Of a stretch of 53,641 nucleotides of DNA, positions 4,530-19,999 are shown one piece after another; positions within the stretch are counted from its first letter, which is position 1, and the number at the start of each line of letters is the position of its first letter. The translations under genes were made by a program, and so were the position numbers. Location: the IMG/VR virus record IMGVR_UViG_3300013119_000172, positions 1-53,641 of that record. One strand, given 5' to 3'. The notes under the pieces are model-generated. The model saw only the letters and a list, made by a program, of their open reading frames with translations. It searched no databases and was not told the origin of the DNA. This stretch comes from a virus. Taxonomy: Duplodnaviria > Caudoviricetes.

Positions 4530-4877
4530 TTATCTAGCTGGCGATTCTACTTCTGGTATCTTCCAATTTGGTGATGCTGTGTTGTTTAAATCATTTCGTG
4601 AGATCACTTTTACTTGGCACCAAGCGGCTAGTTCACGAAAAGTTTCAGCATCTGTTGCTTGTATATTACATTCACCTTTGTGTGAAAATGTAGCTTGCTT
4701 GCTCTCATGTGCAATCGGTATTGGCTCGACCAAATACAACGGATAAGTGATAACAGCAATGATTATGATGGGGAGCATTCCATAGAAGAATATTGTCCAC
4801 ATAATATCATTTATGTCTTTTATAAATGATTTTATTGTTTCCTTTCTCGTTGGTTTATTTTTCGCTATTGTAGCCAT
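4530..4877 (-). CDS. Membrane-anchored hypothetical protein
   Basis: One TM segment (IMWTIFFYGMLPIIIIAVITYPLYLV); start moved to MATIAK on the basis of the GAGGGG RBS. Confidence 0.7.
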   Translation of the reverse strand: MATIAKNKPTRKETIKSFIKDINDIMWTIFFYGMLPIIIIAVITYPLYLVEPIPIAHESKQATFSHKGECNIQATDAETFRELAAWCQVKVISRNDLNNTASPNWKIPEVESPAR

Positions 4878-4878
4878 A

Positions 4879-4935
4879 TTATATTCCCCTCGCATTTAAA
4901 AACTGCGCTATTCTGTACACTATCTGCCCTATCAT
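4879..4935 (-). CDS. Possible 18-aa micro-ORF MIGQIVYRIAQFLNARGI
   Basis: GGAGAG RBS; stop lies 1 nt before the next start codon. Confidence 0.4.
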   Translation of the reverse strand: MIGQIVYRIAQFLNARGI

Positions 4936-5082
4936 TTACTCTCCGTTGTTGTGAATGTGCCGTTTTTGGATCTAACAGAACGGCTAACTGCATGTCCCTT
5001 TTATCTTACAATAGGAGTGGACTTGTTTTCTCCTGTGTATCATGCTGCTGATCTTTTTTGAGATTCGCTGAACACATGAATG

Positions 5083-5159
5083 TGGGTGCGGATGTGGGAC
5101 TTGAACCCACGATCTTTAGGTTATGAGCCTGATGAGATACCAAACTTCTCCAATCCGCG
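5083..5159 (-). tRNA. tRNA-Met(CAT), initiator type (tRNA-fMet)
   Basis: 77-nt cloverleaf; C1:A72 mismatch, A11:U24 pair, CAU anticodon, TTCAAGT T-loop, encoded CCA. Confidence 0.92.
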
Positions 5160-5167
5160 TCAAAAAG

Positions 5168-5318
5168 TGAAGAGCAGCGGGAGTCGAACCCGCAGGCTTA
5201 CCAGAGACTTACAAGGCGATCAACCCTTTGCTTACTGGCTCCCGAACTTCCAGTACATCTGCCGTTCCACCTGTGTCTGACCCGACGGTGGCAATGGACT
5301 TACGACAACTACTCTTCA
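5168..5318 (-). ncRNA. Unclassified tRNA-like structured RNA (151 nt)
   Basis: Terminal stem UGAAGAGUA/UGCUCUUCA stacked on a canonical T-arm GCGGG-UUCGACU-CCCGC; internal hairpins; lies between a promoter and tRNA-fMet. Confidence 0.75.
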
Positions 5319-5365
5319 TAAAATGTTAAAGAACTTGGAAGGTTTGTTTCCTTCCTTATATATCT

Positions 5366-5394
5366 ATTGTAACACATCTACTCTTCGGTGTCAA
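5366..5394 (-). promoter_or_regulatory. Sigma70-type promoter TTGACA-17-TACAAT driving the RNA cluster
   Basis: Near-consensus with TG extension; followed by hairpin GGAAGG-N7-CCTTCC, then the ncRNA and tRNA. Confidence 0.85.
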
Positions 5395-5644
5395 CATCTT
5401 TCTGCTCCTTTTTATAAACTAGTTCCATTTCCCATTCTAAAAAGTATCTTGTTTTTCCATCAAGGCACAGCACTATATAGAAAAACTCGTATGGGAAGCC
5501 CCAAGAGCGATTTGGATCGTATCCTGCTATTATTCCATGAAAGTGAGTAGACTCATCGTAATATTGACTAAAGATATAAAAATCGGTGTAATCGTAGTTA
5601 CATCGCACCAGATCGCCAGTTTTAAATTTTGGAATAAGTCCCAC
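5378..5644 (-). CDS. Small hypothetical, KOW/SH3-like
   Basis: FKTGDLVRC...HGII...YIVLCLDG..RYFLEWEMELV. Confidence 0.7.
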   Translation of the reverse strand: MGLIPKFKTGDLVRCNYDYTDFYIFSQYYDESTHFHGIIAGYDPNRSWGFPYEFFYIVLCLDGKTRYFLEWEMELVYKKEQKDVDTEE

Positions 5645-5656
5645 ATAATAAATACA

Positions 5657-6034
5657 CTACTTGACAGCCTTTAGCCATTCTCTCGGTAGCCAATCTTCTC
5701 TTGGGGCACTGGAGTATGAATTGTTAGACGGTAATTTCAACCATTTGACATACACAAAGCTATTTTTTAGCTTCTTTCTAAATCCTCGATTGTATATGAA
5801 ATATTTCCTTACTAAGTCTGGCTTGGATGAGGAATATACAATGGTGTCCATCAAGACAAATCTCGCAGAATAATCGTGAACTTTATTTATCTCCCGAAGC
5901 ATGCGCTCACCATCAACTTTGGTTGCTTCTGTGAAATCTTCAATAACTTCTATTGCTATCCCGATACCTTGAGAGTTTCGACGATAGCAGCATACCAGAT
6001 CACCAACTTTTATGTTCTTAGACAACACTGTCAC
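5657..6034 (-). CDS. Hypothetical protein ('VGDLV' family)
   Basis: Start placed at GTG 6034 after AAGGAGAG; the longer ORF-track start overlaps 6034..6342. Confidence 0.65.
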   Translation of the reverse strand: MTVLSKNIKVGDLVCCYRRNSQGIGIAIEVIEDFTEATKVDGERMLREINKVHDYSARFVLMDTIVYSSSKPDLVRKYFIYNRGFRKKLKNSFVYVKWLKLPSNNSYSSAPREDWLPREWLKAVK

Positions 6035-6342
6035 TAGGAAGCCTCTCTCCTTGTTCGATTGATTACTGCACCAATATATCCAACGGGAACCATAATTAAA
6101 AGAAATCTCCAGCCCATCCATATAGAATATTCTTTTTTCCATTCTGCTAATCTTGGCTCTTGTCTTTCCAGTGGTGTACTGGGGGATTCTGTTTCTATTA
6201 CCAACTCTAGGCACGAGCCATTATCATCACGAGTTGAATAAACGTCAAAATTGCCTTCATAAATCTCAACCACCTCGCCCATTAAGGCAAGCTTGGCCTT
6301 CTTAAAATCTTCTTTTTCGCCTTTCCAGTATATGTTAGCCAT
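6034..6342 (-). CDS. Hypothetical protein
   Basis: Fits the tightly packed minus-strand series. Confidence 0.65.
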   Translation of the reverse strand: MANIYWKGEKEDFKKAKLALMGEVVEIYEGNFDVYSTRDDNGSCLELVIETESPSTPLERQEPRLAEWKKEYSIWMGWRFLLIMVPVGYIGAVINRTRREAS

Positions 6343-7143: not shown

Positions 7144-7380
7144 TTAGTTCTGACACCCCTTGCAACGCGACCCCCTACTCTGTCTGCGGCCTTGTTTTGA
7201 AATGACAATCTTTTTAAAGTTTTTGATCGAGTCCTCTATCAGTTGACCATTTGAGAGAGCCCTTATTGTCCCAGAGCTATTTATATATGCTCCGCACATA
7301 ACTATTTGGTTTCTGGGGACATGCAAGAGATACTCGCCGGGAAATATTTTATCTGCTTCCCGTATTACTTGGAATTCCAT
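7144..7380 (-). CDS. Hypothetical protein
   Basis: AGGAGG RBS; TAATG overlap; C-terminal CKGC. Confidence 0.7.
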   Translation of the reverse strand: MEFQVIREADKIFPGEYLLHVPRNQIVMCGAYINSSGTIRALSNGQLIEDSIKNFKKIVISKQGRRQSRGSRCKGCQN

Positions 7381-8288
7381 TATTCCTCCTTTAGTGACAT
7401 AAGTGAGTCATAGACTTTGTGTTTTAAGTCTCGTAAGCGTTTCAAGGCTCCTTCCCTGCGAAGGATCTTGAAGGCAATGTTTTCTGGTGAGAATTCTTGC
7501 TCAGGTGTCTCCAAGCCAGCATTTCTCATTTGGCTTATTTTGTCTTTTACTCTGTTGATACTTTGGGATGCTGCCTGTCCATCACCTTGGCGTATCATTT
7601 GGGAAATCAGTCCTATTTGCACAAGATAATCATCCGACTTCTTCTTCGCTGTATCAAAGTCTATACTCCTTTCAATTCTTTCTGGTTCCACGACCCACTC
7701 ACCAGACATCACGGAGTAAACACCAGACGAATGATGAGTTTGGCCTACATCTTCTACATAGATCTCTACCTCGAAGCCCTTGATGAGAATGCGATGCTTG
7801 TCGTTCCAGAGCATCCTAGACTTGTCATAAAACTGTTTTAATACTTCACTACCATTTTCATTTTTTGCGAAGTCTATGACGATGTGGAGGTCAATGTCAG
7901 AATATTTTGACCAATTGTAGTTGGCCAAAGATCCTGTGAGTCTGATATCTACTATTTCATCGGTTGGTTCTAGATCAGCCATAAAGTTTTTTACTATATG
8001 AATGAGCCTTTCTGAGACTTCTGGGGCAAGGGTCTTGTTTTGCCAAAACTCTGGATGTAGGGTATCTTTTATTTCAAAACTCTCTGGTTCTACTTCTTCG
8101 CCCAAAGGTGGTGCCGATTTAGAGCGAGTACGCGGTGGCTTCTCTTTATAACCAGAGCCGCCAGCGTCAGTGTCTATCGTGCCACCTGTGATATATGTAT
8201 CTCTGTCTGCGACATGGCCTTTGCGGACTTTGCGCTGATATGCCTCTATTTCTTTGAGGCTTGAGAAGTATGAGTTCCAATCGTTCAT
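7380..8288 (-). CDS. Pol-beta-superfamily nucleotidyltransferase with N-terminal leader
   Basis: LTGSLANYNWSKYSDIDLHIVID (GS...DxD) plus a third acidic strand EVEIYVED; ACTATTTA box just upstream. Confidence 0.85.
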   Translation of the reverse strand: MNDWNSYFSSLKEIEAYQRKVRKGHVADRDTYITGGTIDTDAGGSGYKEKPPRTRSKSAPPLGEEVEPESFEIKDTLHPEFWQNKTLAPEVSERLIHIVKNFMADLEPTDEIVDIRLTGSLANYNWSKYSDIDLHIVIDFAKNENGSEVLKQFYDKSRMLWNDKHRILIKGFEVEIYVEDVGQTHHSSGVYSVMSGEWVVEPERIERSIDFDTAKKKSDDYLVQIGLISQMIRQGDGQAASQSINRVKDKISQMRNAGLETPEQEFSPENIAFKILRREGALKRLRDLKHKVYDSLMSLKEE

Positions 8289-18421: not shown

Positions 18422-19999
18422 TTAACTTTGTCCTGTTTGTATAATCCCAAAATTAGTTGTGATGAGGGTGCCAGCACAACTAGCAGCGTTTTGGAGAGCC
18501 GTTCGGGTTACCTTCACTGGGTCTATGATCCCACTTTCAATCATATTGGTTAATTTCGAATTTCTGAAGTCCCAGCCTTGATCGGGGTCTGCATTTGCTA
18601 CTTGTTCAATGATCAAGTCTGGTGAGTCACCAGCGTTTATTGCCATTTGACGAATTGGTTCTCGGCAAGCTGCAACAACAATCTGTTTTGCCACATTTTG
18701 AACAGTATTATCAACATCTAGCGATATTTGTTTGGCCGCTCGCAGCAAAGCTGAGCCGCCGCCTGAAACAATGCCTTCCTCTTGAGCAGATCTGACTGCC
18801 TCTAGTGCATCCTCAATTCGGTGCTTCTTCTCGGTCATCTCTACTTCTGTGGAGCCTCCTACTCGGATGACAGCGACACCTGATGATAATCGCACTATAC
18901 GCTCCTGTATTCGTTCACATTCTTGAATAGACTCAGTACCCTTGATTATATTTTTTAACGTCTCTATTCTGCCCTCAACGGCCTCGTAGTCGCTTGAGCC
19001 ACCGACTATGGTGGTTATATATTTTGTGCTCTCGATGAACTTGGCTGTTCCGAGGTCTGCAAGTGTTACTTCGGTCAGTTTCTGACCACTCTCGCGAGTC
19101 ACAAACGTGGCAGATGTTGAGATTGCCAAATCATTTAGCATATTGCGGCGTTCTTGGCCGTAAAACGGTGCCTTGATTGCGGCAATCTTTAGTGTGCCTC
19201 GCATAGCGTTCATAATCATTGCGGCAAGGGCTTGACCCTCGATATCTTCTGCCACTAAGATAAGCGGTCTCCCTTCACGAGCAACCATTTCTAAGATGGG
19301 CAATATTTGCTCTACTGCCGATACCTTGTGATCTGTCACCAAAATCAGGGGCTCTTCGTAGTGCATGATTGCTCGGCGCTCGTCGGTTATAAATGCGCCG
19401 GCGCTATAGCCAGATTCAAACTTGAAGCCCTCTGTTACATCTAGGGATGTCTCTAGTGAGCGAGACTCTTCGATAGTGATTGAGCCATCTTGGCCAACAC
19501 GATCAACCGCAAGAGAGATAAGTTTTCCAATTGTTTCATCATTGTTGGCTGATATTGTGGCTATGTGCGCAATATCTTCTACACTTGTCACTGGTGTTGC
19601 CATTTCCTTAAGAACTTTGGCTATCTCCCCTGTGACAGTCTCAATGCCTCTCTGTAGCTCTATTGGCGACACCCCAGACGCTATAAAACGCTGTGATTCT
19701 CGCAGGATAGCTCTTGCTAATACTGTTGATGTTGTTGTGCCATCGCCAGCATCGTTATTGGTATTGACTGCTGCTTGGCGGATGATCTCTGCGCCAGCGT
19801 TCTCTATTGGATCATCTAGCTGTACGAAGGCTGCGACCGTTACGCCATCTTTTGTAATGAAAGGTGATTTACCTTTCTCTTGTAAGAGAACATTGCGTCC
19901 TCTTGGGCCTAGCGTTGAAGCTACATTGTCTGCTAGTGTGTCTACGCCTCGTAAAATCTTTTCTTGTAGTGTACTGCCATTATCATAAGTTCTGCTCAT
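18422..19999 (-). CDS. groEL: Chaperonin GroEL
   Basis: TLGPRGRNV, ITKDGVTVA, AGDGTTT, GGGSALL, GIIDPVKV; no GGM tail. Confidence 0.97.
   Translation of the reverse strand: MSRTYDNGSTLQEKILRGVDTLADNVASTLGPRGRNVLLQEKGKSPFITKDGVTVAAFVQLDDPIENAGAEIIRQAAVNTNNDAGDGTTTSTVLARAILRESQRFIASGVSPIELQRGIETVTGEIAKVLKEMATPVTSVEDIAHIATISANNDETIGKLISLAVDRVGQDGSITIEESRSLETSLDVTEGFKFESGYSAGAFITDERRAIMHYEEPLILVTDHKVSAVEQILPILEMVAREGRPLILVAEDIEGQALAAMIMNAMRGTLKIAAIKAPFYGQERRNMLNDLAISTSATFVTRESGQKLTEVTLADLGTAKFIESTKYITTIVGGSSDYEAVEGRIETLKNIIKGTESIQECERIQERIVRLSSGVAVIRVGGSTEVEMTEKKHRIEDALEAVRSAQEEGIVSGGGSALLRAAKQISLDVDNTVQNVAKQIVVAACREPIRQMAINAGDSPDLIIEQVANADPDQGWDFRNSKLTNMIESGIIDPVKVTRTALQNAASCAGTLITTNFGIIQTGQS

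Follow-up and report, generated by a model that had tools for sequence, protein, structure and literature searches.

In this study, we analyzed a 53,641-nucleotide (nt) stretch of viral DNA (IMG/VR record IMGVR_UViG_3300013119_000172; the whole stretch is called the window below) and found on its minus strand a 151-nt element that is an expanded and rearranged descendant of a leucine transfer RNA (tRNA-Leu) gene, not a free-standing new class of RNA. The element extends over positions 5168 to 5318, with element position 1 corresponding to 5318, and was delineated by sequence reading, covariance models and segment alignments. Judged from these comparisons, its ancestor was very probably a tRNA-Leu(UAA) gene. 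The loss of normal decoding is well supported, and we prefer, with about even confidence, to regard the element as a non-decoding relic. An earlier, sequence-only reading had proposed a possibly undescribed tRNA-mimic RNA. Its ancestry is now known, based on the tRNA-Leu(UAA) slot in which it lies and on three segments that align with this tRNA, whereas mimicry survives as a minority reading. The same reading would have been refuted, by its own account, by homologues that reveal a decayed tRNA with a non-conserved, non-covarying insertion. Descent from a tRNA is indeed borne out, yet no homologue with the insertions was present among the searched loci.

The comparison is based on 80 viral and 80 metagenomic loci that were fetched with a 302-amino-acid (aa) marker protein of the window (7380 to 8288, minus strand), with best identities of 56–58%. 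Together with nine loci retrieved by a search with the 88-aa protein family encoded next to the element and three loci found by pattern matching (L162 to L164), the loci from other records number 172. ARAGORN calls cover all of these but the metagenomic loci L082 to L161. Segment identities to tRNA-Leu were counted by eye on tool-made alignments, and locus counts were taken from tables and by reading.

Homology to tRNA-Leu(UAA) has been retained in several segments of the element. The T-arm (GCGGG-UUCGACU-CCCGC, 5177 to 5193), taken together with the preceding U, is identical at 18/18 positions to the tRNA-Leu(UAA) of six relatives. This 18-nt stretch occurs exactly in 6/160 other loci, in all of them within a tRNA-Leu(taa) gene, the match in L126 being placed in a tRNA-Leu by covariance-model alignment and not by ARAGORN. 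Over the full 3' part, element positions 108–151 and tRNA-Leu(UAA) positions 44–86, comprising the variable arm, the T-arm and the 3' strand, share 33/43 residues. The hairpin beside the T-arm had previously been taken for a D-arm. It forms 4/5 pairs, with one U x C opposition, and in alignment corresponds to the variable arm in the tRNA-Leu(UAA) of the relatives; this variable-arm homologue (element 110–125; 5194 to 5209) is assigned by both covariance-model and segment alignment. The true D-arm match is located elsewhere, at 5271–5254 (element 48–65), where 13/18 residues are identical to tRNA-Leu positions 9–26. All five differences in this piece are transitions, and three of them, situated in the 3' strand of the stem, leave G-U or U-G pairs. 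A 14-nt D-arm motif is found once in the window against an expectation of 0.01, with the restriction that the motif was picked after the match had been seen. Elsewhere this motif occurs in seven loci, in five of them within tRNA-Leu genes called by ARAGORN, and the alignments of L126 and L147 show the CUUAAAA anticodon loop. At the opposite end, element positions 1–13 (5306 to 5318), covering the 5' acceptor strand, U8 and the start of the D-stem, are identical at 9/13 positions to tRNA-Leu(UAA) positions 1–13 in L009, L033 and L021.

A covariance model built from the element alone (R1) recovers the same relationship. Across the 80 viral loci it gave 12 matches with an expectation value (E) of at most 10 (best score 20.4 bits), of which 9/12, including the top eight, fall in tRNA-Leu(taa) genes, while two lie over tRNA-Arg/Gln and one over tRNA-Lys. 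These alignments place the hairpin AAGG-GUUGAUCG-CCUU on the anticodon arm and the hairpin beside the T-arm on the variable arm. On the nine synteny loci, searched with filters off, the top six matches are tRNA-Leu genes (best 21.1 bits), and the best score in the metagenomic loci is 20.0 bits. With nhmmer, the element retrieved only weak T-arm matches in the 80 viral loci (E 0.12–0.42).

The genomic position of the element points to the same ancestor. It is preceded by open reading frames (ORFs) of 102, 185 and 88 aa, in this order, and by a promoter. The 88-aa ORF (5378 to 5644, minus strand) matches ORFs preceding tRNA-Leu in L009 (E 3e-12) and L002 (E 8e-11), and since its homologues directly precede tRNA-Leu(UAA) in the relatives, it marks synteny. 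The 185-aa ORF matches the next ORF upstream in L009 (pairwise E 2e-16); as a single query it retrieved no relatives in viral or metagenome contigs. Ahead of both homologues, L009 has a 93-aa ORF that resembles the 102-aa ORF by eye only, without a score, and behind them follow a promoter and tRNA-Leu(UAA). Seven aligned relatives have in common an 88-aa-type ORF, a promoter of the form TTGACA-17-TAT(T/A)AT, a leader of ~14 nt and the tRNA-Leu(UAA). The search of viral contigs with the 88-aa family yielded nine loci, of which 8/9 have an ARAGORN-called tRNA-Leu(taa) that starts 64–70 nt past the end of the match, the ninth, on the contig of L002, being without tRNA-Leu(taa) by ARAGORN. In the window, the element starts 93–99 nt past the equivalent residues of the 88-aa ORF, the surplus corresponding to about the length of a leader hairpin that is described below. 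The conserved neighbours and spacing thus place the element in the tRNA-Leu(UAA) slot. Behind the 88-aa gene and a promoter of the sigma-70 type, it takes the orthologous place of the canonical phage tRNA-Leu(UAA) of the relatives, which is of type II and has a long variable arm.

The promoter (TTGACA-17-TACAAT with TG before the -10 box; 5366 to 5394, minus strand) has 11/12 matches and overlaps the stop codon of the 88-aa ORF. A tRNA-Met(CAU) with encoded CCA (5083 to 5159, minus strand) begins 8 nt downstream of the element; it is called by ARAGORN and scores 52.3 bits with the Rfam tRNA model. Both the strong promoter and the adjacent tRNA had been noted correctly before. Many related loci carry a tRNA cluster 2–3 kilobases (kb) downstream on the same strand, typically in the order Leu(taa), Lys(ttt), Met(cat), Arg(tct).

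Compared to the canonical tRNA-Leu(UAA), the element has a homologous 5' end, D-arm, variable arm, T-arm and 3' strand as well as the discriminator A, but it measures 151 nt instead of 84–89 nt. About 65 extra bases are present in its D/anticodon half. They include an insertion of ~35 nt after the start of the D-stem (5272 to 5305), which carries the 5' half of a CCACC.../...GGUGG hairpin and of which no other copy was found, and an extra hairpin UACUGG-AAGUUCGGGAG-CCAGUA (element 64–86; 5233 to 5255) that has no counterpart in canonical tRNA-Leu and looks like a second (type II) D-arm or an extra arm. A single extra base is located at the T/acceptor junction, making the 3' acceptor strand (UGCUCUUC followed by A; 5168 to 5176) one base longer than in the relatives. 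The anticodon loop CUUAAAA, which is carried on a stem of 5 base pairs (bp) and is invariant in 16/16 relatives, is gone from the element, and no anticodon loop of 7 nt is left. The absence of a canonical anticodon loop and the presence of a GG-bearing D-loop sequence, both observed earlier, are confirmed, but the view that there was no room for an anticodon arm has to be given up: the hairpin AAGG-GUUGAUCG-CCUU (5228–5213, within element 89–107; 5212 to 5230) sits at the anticodon-arm position and is aligned to the anticodon arm by the model. Having a 4-bp stem (AAGG/CCUU) and an 8-nt loop (GUUGAUCG), it is not a canonical anticodon arm.

The 3' end has changed as well. CCA is encoded in 16/16 aligned relatives' tRNA-Leu genes and in the tRNA-Met of the window, whereas the element reads ACUU in place of ACCA, the A at the discriminator position being retained and followed by CUU. 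Position 3:70 is an A-U pair, so the element has, as originally described, neither an encoded CCA nor G3:U70. When scored with a covariance model of the tRNA-Leu genes of 16 relatives (R2), the element obtains 16.1 bits compared to 40.9 bits for the unrelated tRNA-Met, and its alignment comprises the variable arm, the T-arm and the 3' strand only. The element is rejected by ARAGORN, Rfam and R2 alike.

Still, the two ends of the element can be closed into an acceptor-type helix, as had been proposed. The 5' end 5318–5310 (UGAAGAGUA) pairs with the 3' end 5176–5168 (UGCUCUUCA) over 8–9 bp with one U-G pair, and the helix directly adjoins the T-arm (5193–5177). The pairing is readable in the sequence and was recovered by an inverted-repeat search as repeat I1, with 10-nt arms that are 90% complementary and 131 nt apart. 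A substrate of RNase P or of the CCA-adding enzyme would be expected to have a coaxial acceptor/T stack of ~12–13 bp and a single-stranded 3' end; a stack of 8 or 9 plus 5 bp can be drawn from the sequence, and the minimum free energy fold does not contain the T-arm. The folding energy is ordinary when compared to shuffled sequences (z -0.67 over its full length, and between -0.34 and +0.95 for its pieces), and thermodynamic folding favors no particular fold. In 2 x 53,641 positions, 31 8-mers that pair with the 3' strand were seen against 35.4 expected, or ~0.04–0.05 per 140 nt, and because of this chance expectation the acceptor closure alone is only suggestive.

No Rfam family accounts for the element. 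The Rfam and ARAGORN checks that had been recommended were run: over the window ARAGORN calls the tRNA-Met alone, with no tRNA or transfer-messenger RNA (tmRNA) at the element, and no Rfam family reaches its gathering score there. In a permissive Rfam scan of 701 nt, no match of the tRNA family (RF00005; gathering score 29 bits) on the element is listed, one lower-scoring match of the same clan being suppressed beneath a tRNA-Sec match. The latter (RF01852, a family that also calls for a UCA anticodon and a 6-bp D-stem) reaches 20.7 bits (E 0.19), below its gathering score of 47. Its alignment draws on another 5' strand, which brings in a C-C mismatch, and is confident for the acceptor and T-arm only. 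YrlA (RF02553) scores 16.2 bits against a gathering score of 69, with an alignment covering the 3' part of the element and the tRNA-Met. A tmRNA is likewise rejected, given the missing ARAGORN call and the A-U instead of G-U at 3:70. Small ribozymes and other Rfam families give nothing credible, the best non-tRNA matches being at chance level (e.g., CPEB3 with 11.2 bits). The statement that the layout fits neither tmRNA, YrlA nor tRNA-Sec is thereby upheld.

We explain the element as follows. Its ancestor is the first gene of the tRNA operon in this group of marine phages, a tRNA-Leu(UAA). In the present lineage this gene grew from ~86 to 151 nt by the addition of ~35 nt after the D-stem start, of an extra hairpin in the D/anticodon region and of one base to the 3' strand of the acceptor. 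What has been retained is the T-arm, the variable arm, the sequence of the D-loop and an acceptor helix that still closes, while the CUUAAAA loop and the encoded CCA were lost, as a result of which UUA is no longer decoded. Considering the promoter, the 8-nt spacing and general knowledge on tRNA operons, the strong promoter presumably drives transcription of a tRNA-Met precursor with the element as its 5' part, and the element may be cut away as RNase P matures tRNA-Met. At most it would now serve as a structured leader, probably devoid of function. Such a relic is in line with the occurrence of the element as a singleton, with several independent lesions, two of which are in the top half, and with its ordinary fold. 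In addition, the 5' acceptor strand (about 5305–5318) is one copy of a 13-nt direct repeat (12/13 identical) detected by a repeat search; the second copy, 69 nt apart, covers the promoter spacer and the end of the 88-aa ORF including its stop codon (5374 to 5386, minus strand), which hints at rearrangement.

A number of observations nevertheless speak against a mere relic. The damage is uneven: none of the 18 nt of the T-arm region and two of the 14 nt of the D-loop have changed, and pairing in the acceptor is complete over 8–9 bp, whereas the anticodon loop is unrecognizable and nearly all inserted sequence is found in the lower half. In comparison to L009, the acceptor stem has changed on both strands with its pairing kept, as read from the alignments, and the three transitions in the D-stem keep wobble pairs. 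No alignment is possible between the promoter and leader of the window and those of the relatives, indicating that neutral DNA is saturated at such a distance, and a long-dead gene should not retain its T-arm. Moreover, dead DNA is usually deleted from phage genomes. Either the remodelling took place recently or selection still acts on the top half, and the latter would favor a tRNA mimic. Taken together, we hold the chances of a relic to be about even and those of a working mimic to be appreciable, if clearly lower.

According to the mimic explanation, which we entertain tentatively, a former tRNA-Leu without anticodon would have been exapted, with selection maintaining the minihelix of acceptor and T-arm as well as the elbow of D-loop and T-loop. 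It would be released from the tRNA-Met precursor by RNase P and 3' trimming and may receive CCA. Its proposed role would be that of a decoy for enzymes reading the elbow or acceptor or for defence nucleases, or that of a scaffold, with the extra hairpins as new functional part. In a more specific and somewhat more doubtful version, the phage would have turned its own tRNA-Leu into a non-decoding top-half mimic, with new hairpins in place of the anticodon arm and with the minihelix and elbow that are recognized by RNase P, the CCA-adding enzyme and elbow-reading proteins. This mimic would be co-produced with the initiator-like tRNA-Met and could, for example, divert defence nucleases of the host that are directed at tRNAs. 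The uneven conservation is of the kind seen in tmRNA tRNA-like domains and YrlA, in which the top half is retained and the bottom half replaced. The intact T-arm region (18/18), the retained D-loop motif and the closed acceptor equally fit a mimic, as does the strong promoter directly upstream. The identity of the sequence in contigs of two studies can be added, although it proves that the element is real and not that it is selected, and bacterial pseudo-tRNAs with non-translational roles have been reported (PMC3399842). On the other side, neither the 172 loci nor the phage records contain a second example, leaving the mimic without support from covariation; the folding energy is ordinary, and acceptor closure by itself has a chance expectation of ~0.05. 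The 5' strand is also a copy of the repeat in the promoter spacer, hinting at rearrangement rather than design, the top half is itself damaged by one additional base where T-stem and acceptor meet and by the lost CCA, and there is no evident partner gene, the neighbours being without PHROG family.

The remaining explanations are far less probable. A tRNA of odd shape that still decodes, e.g., charged with leucine and having an 8-bp acceptor and an 8-nt anticodon loop that reads an unusual or four-base codon, is very unlikely. It would agree with the retained discriminator A, with the four Watson-Crick pairs kept by the hairpin at the anticodon position, with the fact that LeuRS does not read the anticodon, and with the presence of another odd, probably functional tRNA in the relative L014 (12004 to 12082). 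Yet such a tRNA would have to accommodate ~35 nt between the acceptor strand and the D-arm plus an extra arm, its loop GUUGAUCG has a pyrimidine just after the anticodon, where a purine is normal, CCA is not encoded, in contrast to the 16 aligned relatives' tRNA-Leu, and ARAGORN, Rfam and R2 all reject it. Still less credible is a 36-aa peptide ORF (5319 to 5209, minus strand) that would make the RNA features incidental. It starts with ATG, runs for 36 codons and covers the first 110 nt of the element, but by reading there is no Shine-Dalgarno motif before the ATG, no PHROG match was obtained, no conserved homologous ORFs were seen in the relatives, 36 open codons are expected by chance in ~1/5 of cases, and the sequence is better accounted for by its tRNA-derived segments. 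Chance resemblance or an assembly artefact, finally, has hardly any probability left: the unremarkable thermodynamics of the fold would be compatible with it, but the T-arm identity (18/18), the D-arm motif (0.01 expected), the syntenic slot and the identical contigs of a second study all contradict it.

Should the element be a relic, it would provide a well-documented example of phage tRNA gene decay via internal expansion and not via truncation, and it would teach that orphan tRNA-like elements beside phage tRNAs need to be compared with the tRNA set of relatives first. If, conversely, the top half is selected, the element would be a tRNA mimic born from an identifiable tRNA whose canonical ancestor is still present in sister phages. 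Such a birth has so far only been inferred for tmRNA or Y-like RNAs. A non-decoding member would then be added to the phage tRNA toolkit that is discussed for anti-defence.

The singleton status of the element follows from searches at several levels. No R1 match above 21.1 bits indicated the expanded form in 169/172 loci, L162 to L164 not being part of the model search, and nothing similar to the 5' expansion is present in any of the viral, metagenomic or nine synteny loci. Exact and near-exact patterns derived from the element or its tRNA-Met gave 0 matches in viral contigs. Hairpin-type patterns gave one viral match and two genome matches (L162 to L164), at which ARAGORN finds no tRNA; these matches lie in GC-rich, apparently coding sequence and are therefore treated as chance. 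Against 50,697 phage records, blastn with the element yielded a 24-nt match only, and blastn with the 3-kb region gave matches through tRNA-Met only. No further copy of the inserted part was found in the window or in viral contigs. A keyword search of the literature retrieved no description of an internally expanded phage tRNA-Leu derivative, which is a weak negative and not a proof.

Several known systems can be compared with the element. It shares with the tRNA-like domain of tmRNA an acceptor stem on a T-arm, a D-loop analogue and a replaced anticodon arm, but it is far smaller, is derived from tRNA-Leu, and has no G3:U70 and no detected tag frame or pseudoknots. Separate and normal tmRNA genes exist in relatives of the window phage. 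YrlA likewise has a tRNA-like module of T-arm and D-arm inside a longer RNA; its ends form a Ro-binding stem, not an acceptor stem. A Ro60 gene was not seen in our analysis, though no search was directed at one. The pseudo-tRNA tRNA-Other of Bacillus cereus is bacterial and chromosomal and has a near-normal cloverleaf size. Being reportedly derived from a tRNA, non-translational and of cellular effect (PMC3399842), it provides a precedent for a mimic. The prokaryotic tRNA pseudogenes and gene fragments discussed in PMC9897764 are also tRNA-derived and fail canonical tRNA tests, whereas in the element both tRNA ends are present and paired, and the gene is expanded instead of truncated. With tRNA-Sec and the allo-tRNAs that have 8/5, 8/4 or 9/3 acceptor/T branches (PMC5389517), the element has in common a possible combination of an 8-bp acceptor with a 5-bp T-stem and a long extra arm; unlike tRNA-Sec, it has no UCA anticodon loop and is ~55–60 nt too long. 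Non-canonical tRNAs and bacterial Y RNAs are the subjects of PMC7609411 and PMC4201824, respectively.

The tmRNAs of related contigs are located in L048 (5934 to 6304), L050 (403 to 773), L061 (5745 to 6114), L065 (3887 to 4260) and, on the complementary strand, L062 (907 to 1315), with tags such as ENFLNTASVEVVEGEVALA. Comparably placed orphan T-arm ends in L043 (~6938) and L047 (~4826) may be tmRNAs that were missed by ARAGORN.

The window record is a 53.6-kb IMG/VR virus with an estimated completeness of ~27% (CheckV), and the sequencing runs in which it is contained are marine or seawater metagenomes. The element occurs without differences in contigs from the runs of a second study (X6 covering 5171–6091 and X5 covering 4600–5293), where position 4970 in X5 is the sole variant across 1.6 kb, and it is invariant across four DNA runs, showing no population variation. 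These identical contigs indicate that the sequence is real and not an accident of assembly. Genes of the window encode GroEL, a ribonucleotide reductase, a DnaB-like helicase and a UvsX-like recombinase, the GroEL-like chaperonin being located at 18422–19999 on the minus strand (phrog_5725, E 8e-142). No cultured phage is close: with the 302-aa marker protein as a query, the best tblastn identity remains below 40%, the closest matches at this level being uncultured megaphage records and Maribacter phages.

The leader hairpin between promoter and element (GGAAGG-AAACAAA-CCUUCC, six pairs with a 7-nt loop; 5337 to 5355, minus strand) was detected by its terminator-like score, which holds on both strands, and the aligned relatives, with their short leaders, do not have it. 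Termination of the upstream operon or attenuation of the tRNA transcript would be possible roles. In the relatives, the leader between the -10 box and tRNA-Leu is conserved (AAGAGAGUA...; L009 11163–11177 with equivalents in L033 and L032) and resembles the 5' end of the tRNA itself. For L009 and L033, pairing of this leader with the 3' acceptor strand would be possible at 7/8 positions. The leader is unchanged in L032 despite an altered acceptor stem, and hence promoter-proximal conservation is a more probable reason than pairing.

Read by eye, the tRNA-Met of the window is initiator-like, with a C1 x A72 mismatch that is flagged in the Rfam alignment, an A11:U24 pair, just two G-C pairs adjoining the anticodon loop and a C that precedes CCA. 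The tRNA-Met genes of most relatives begin with GGG and have the look of elongator or Ile2 types. A further tRNA-like gene that escaped ARAGORN is found in L014 (12004 to 12082, plus strand) and identically in L015, with an Rfam tRNA score of 27.3 bits against the gathering score of 29. It consists of a 7-bp acceptor, ~4 nt at the place of the D-arm, an anticodon arm with UAU, a 20-nt variable region containing CUGGU, a T-arm and an encoded CCA, and thus looks like a D-arm-less tRNA-Ile(UAU) in a phage tRNA operon.

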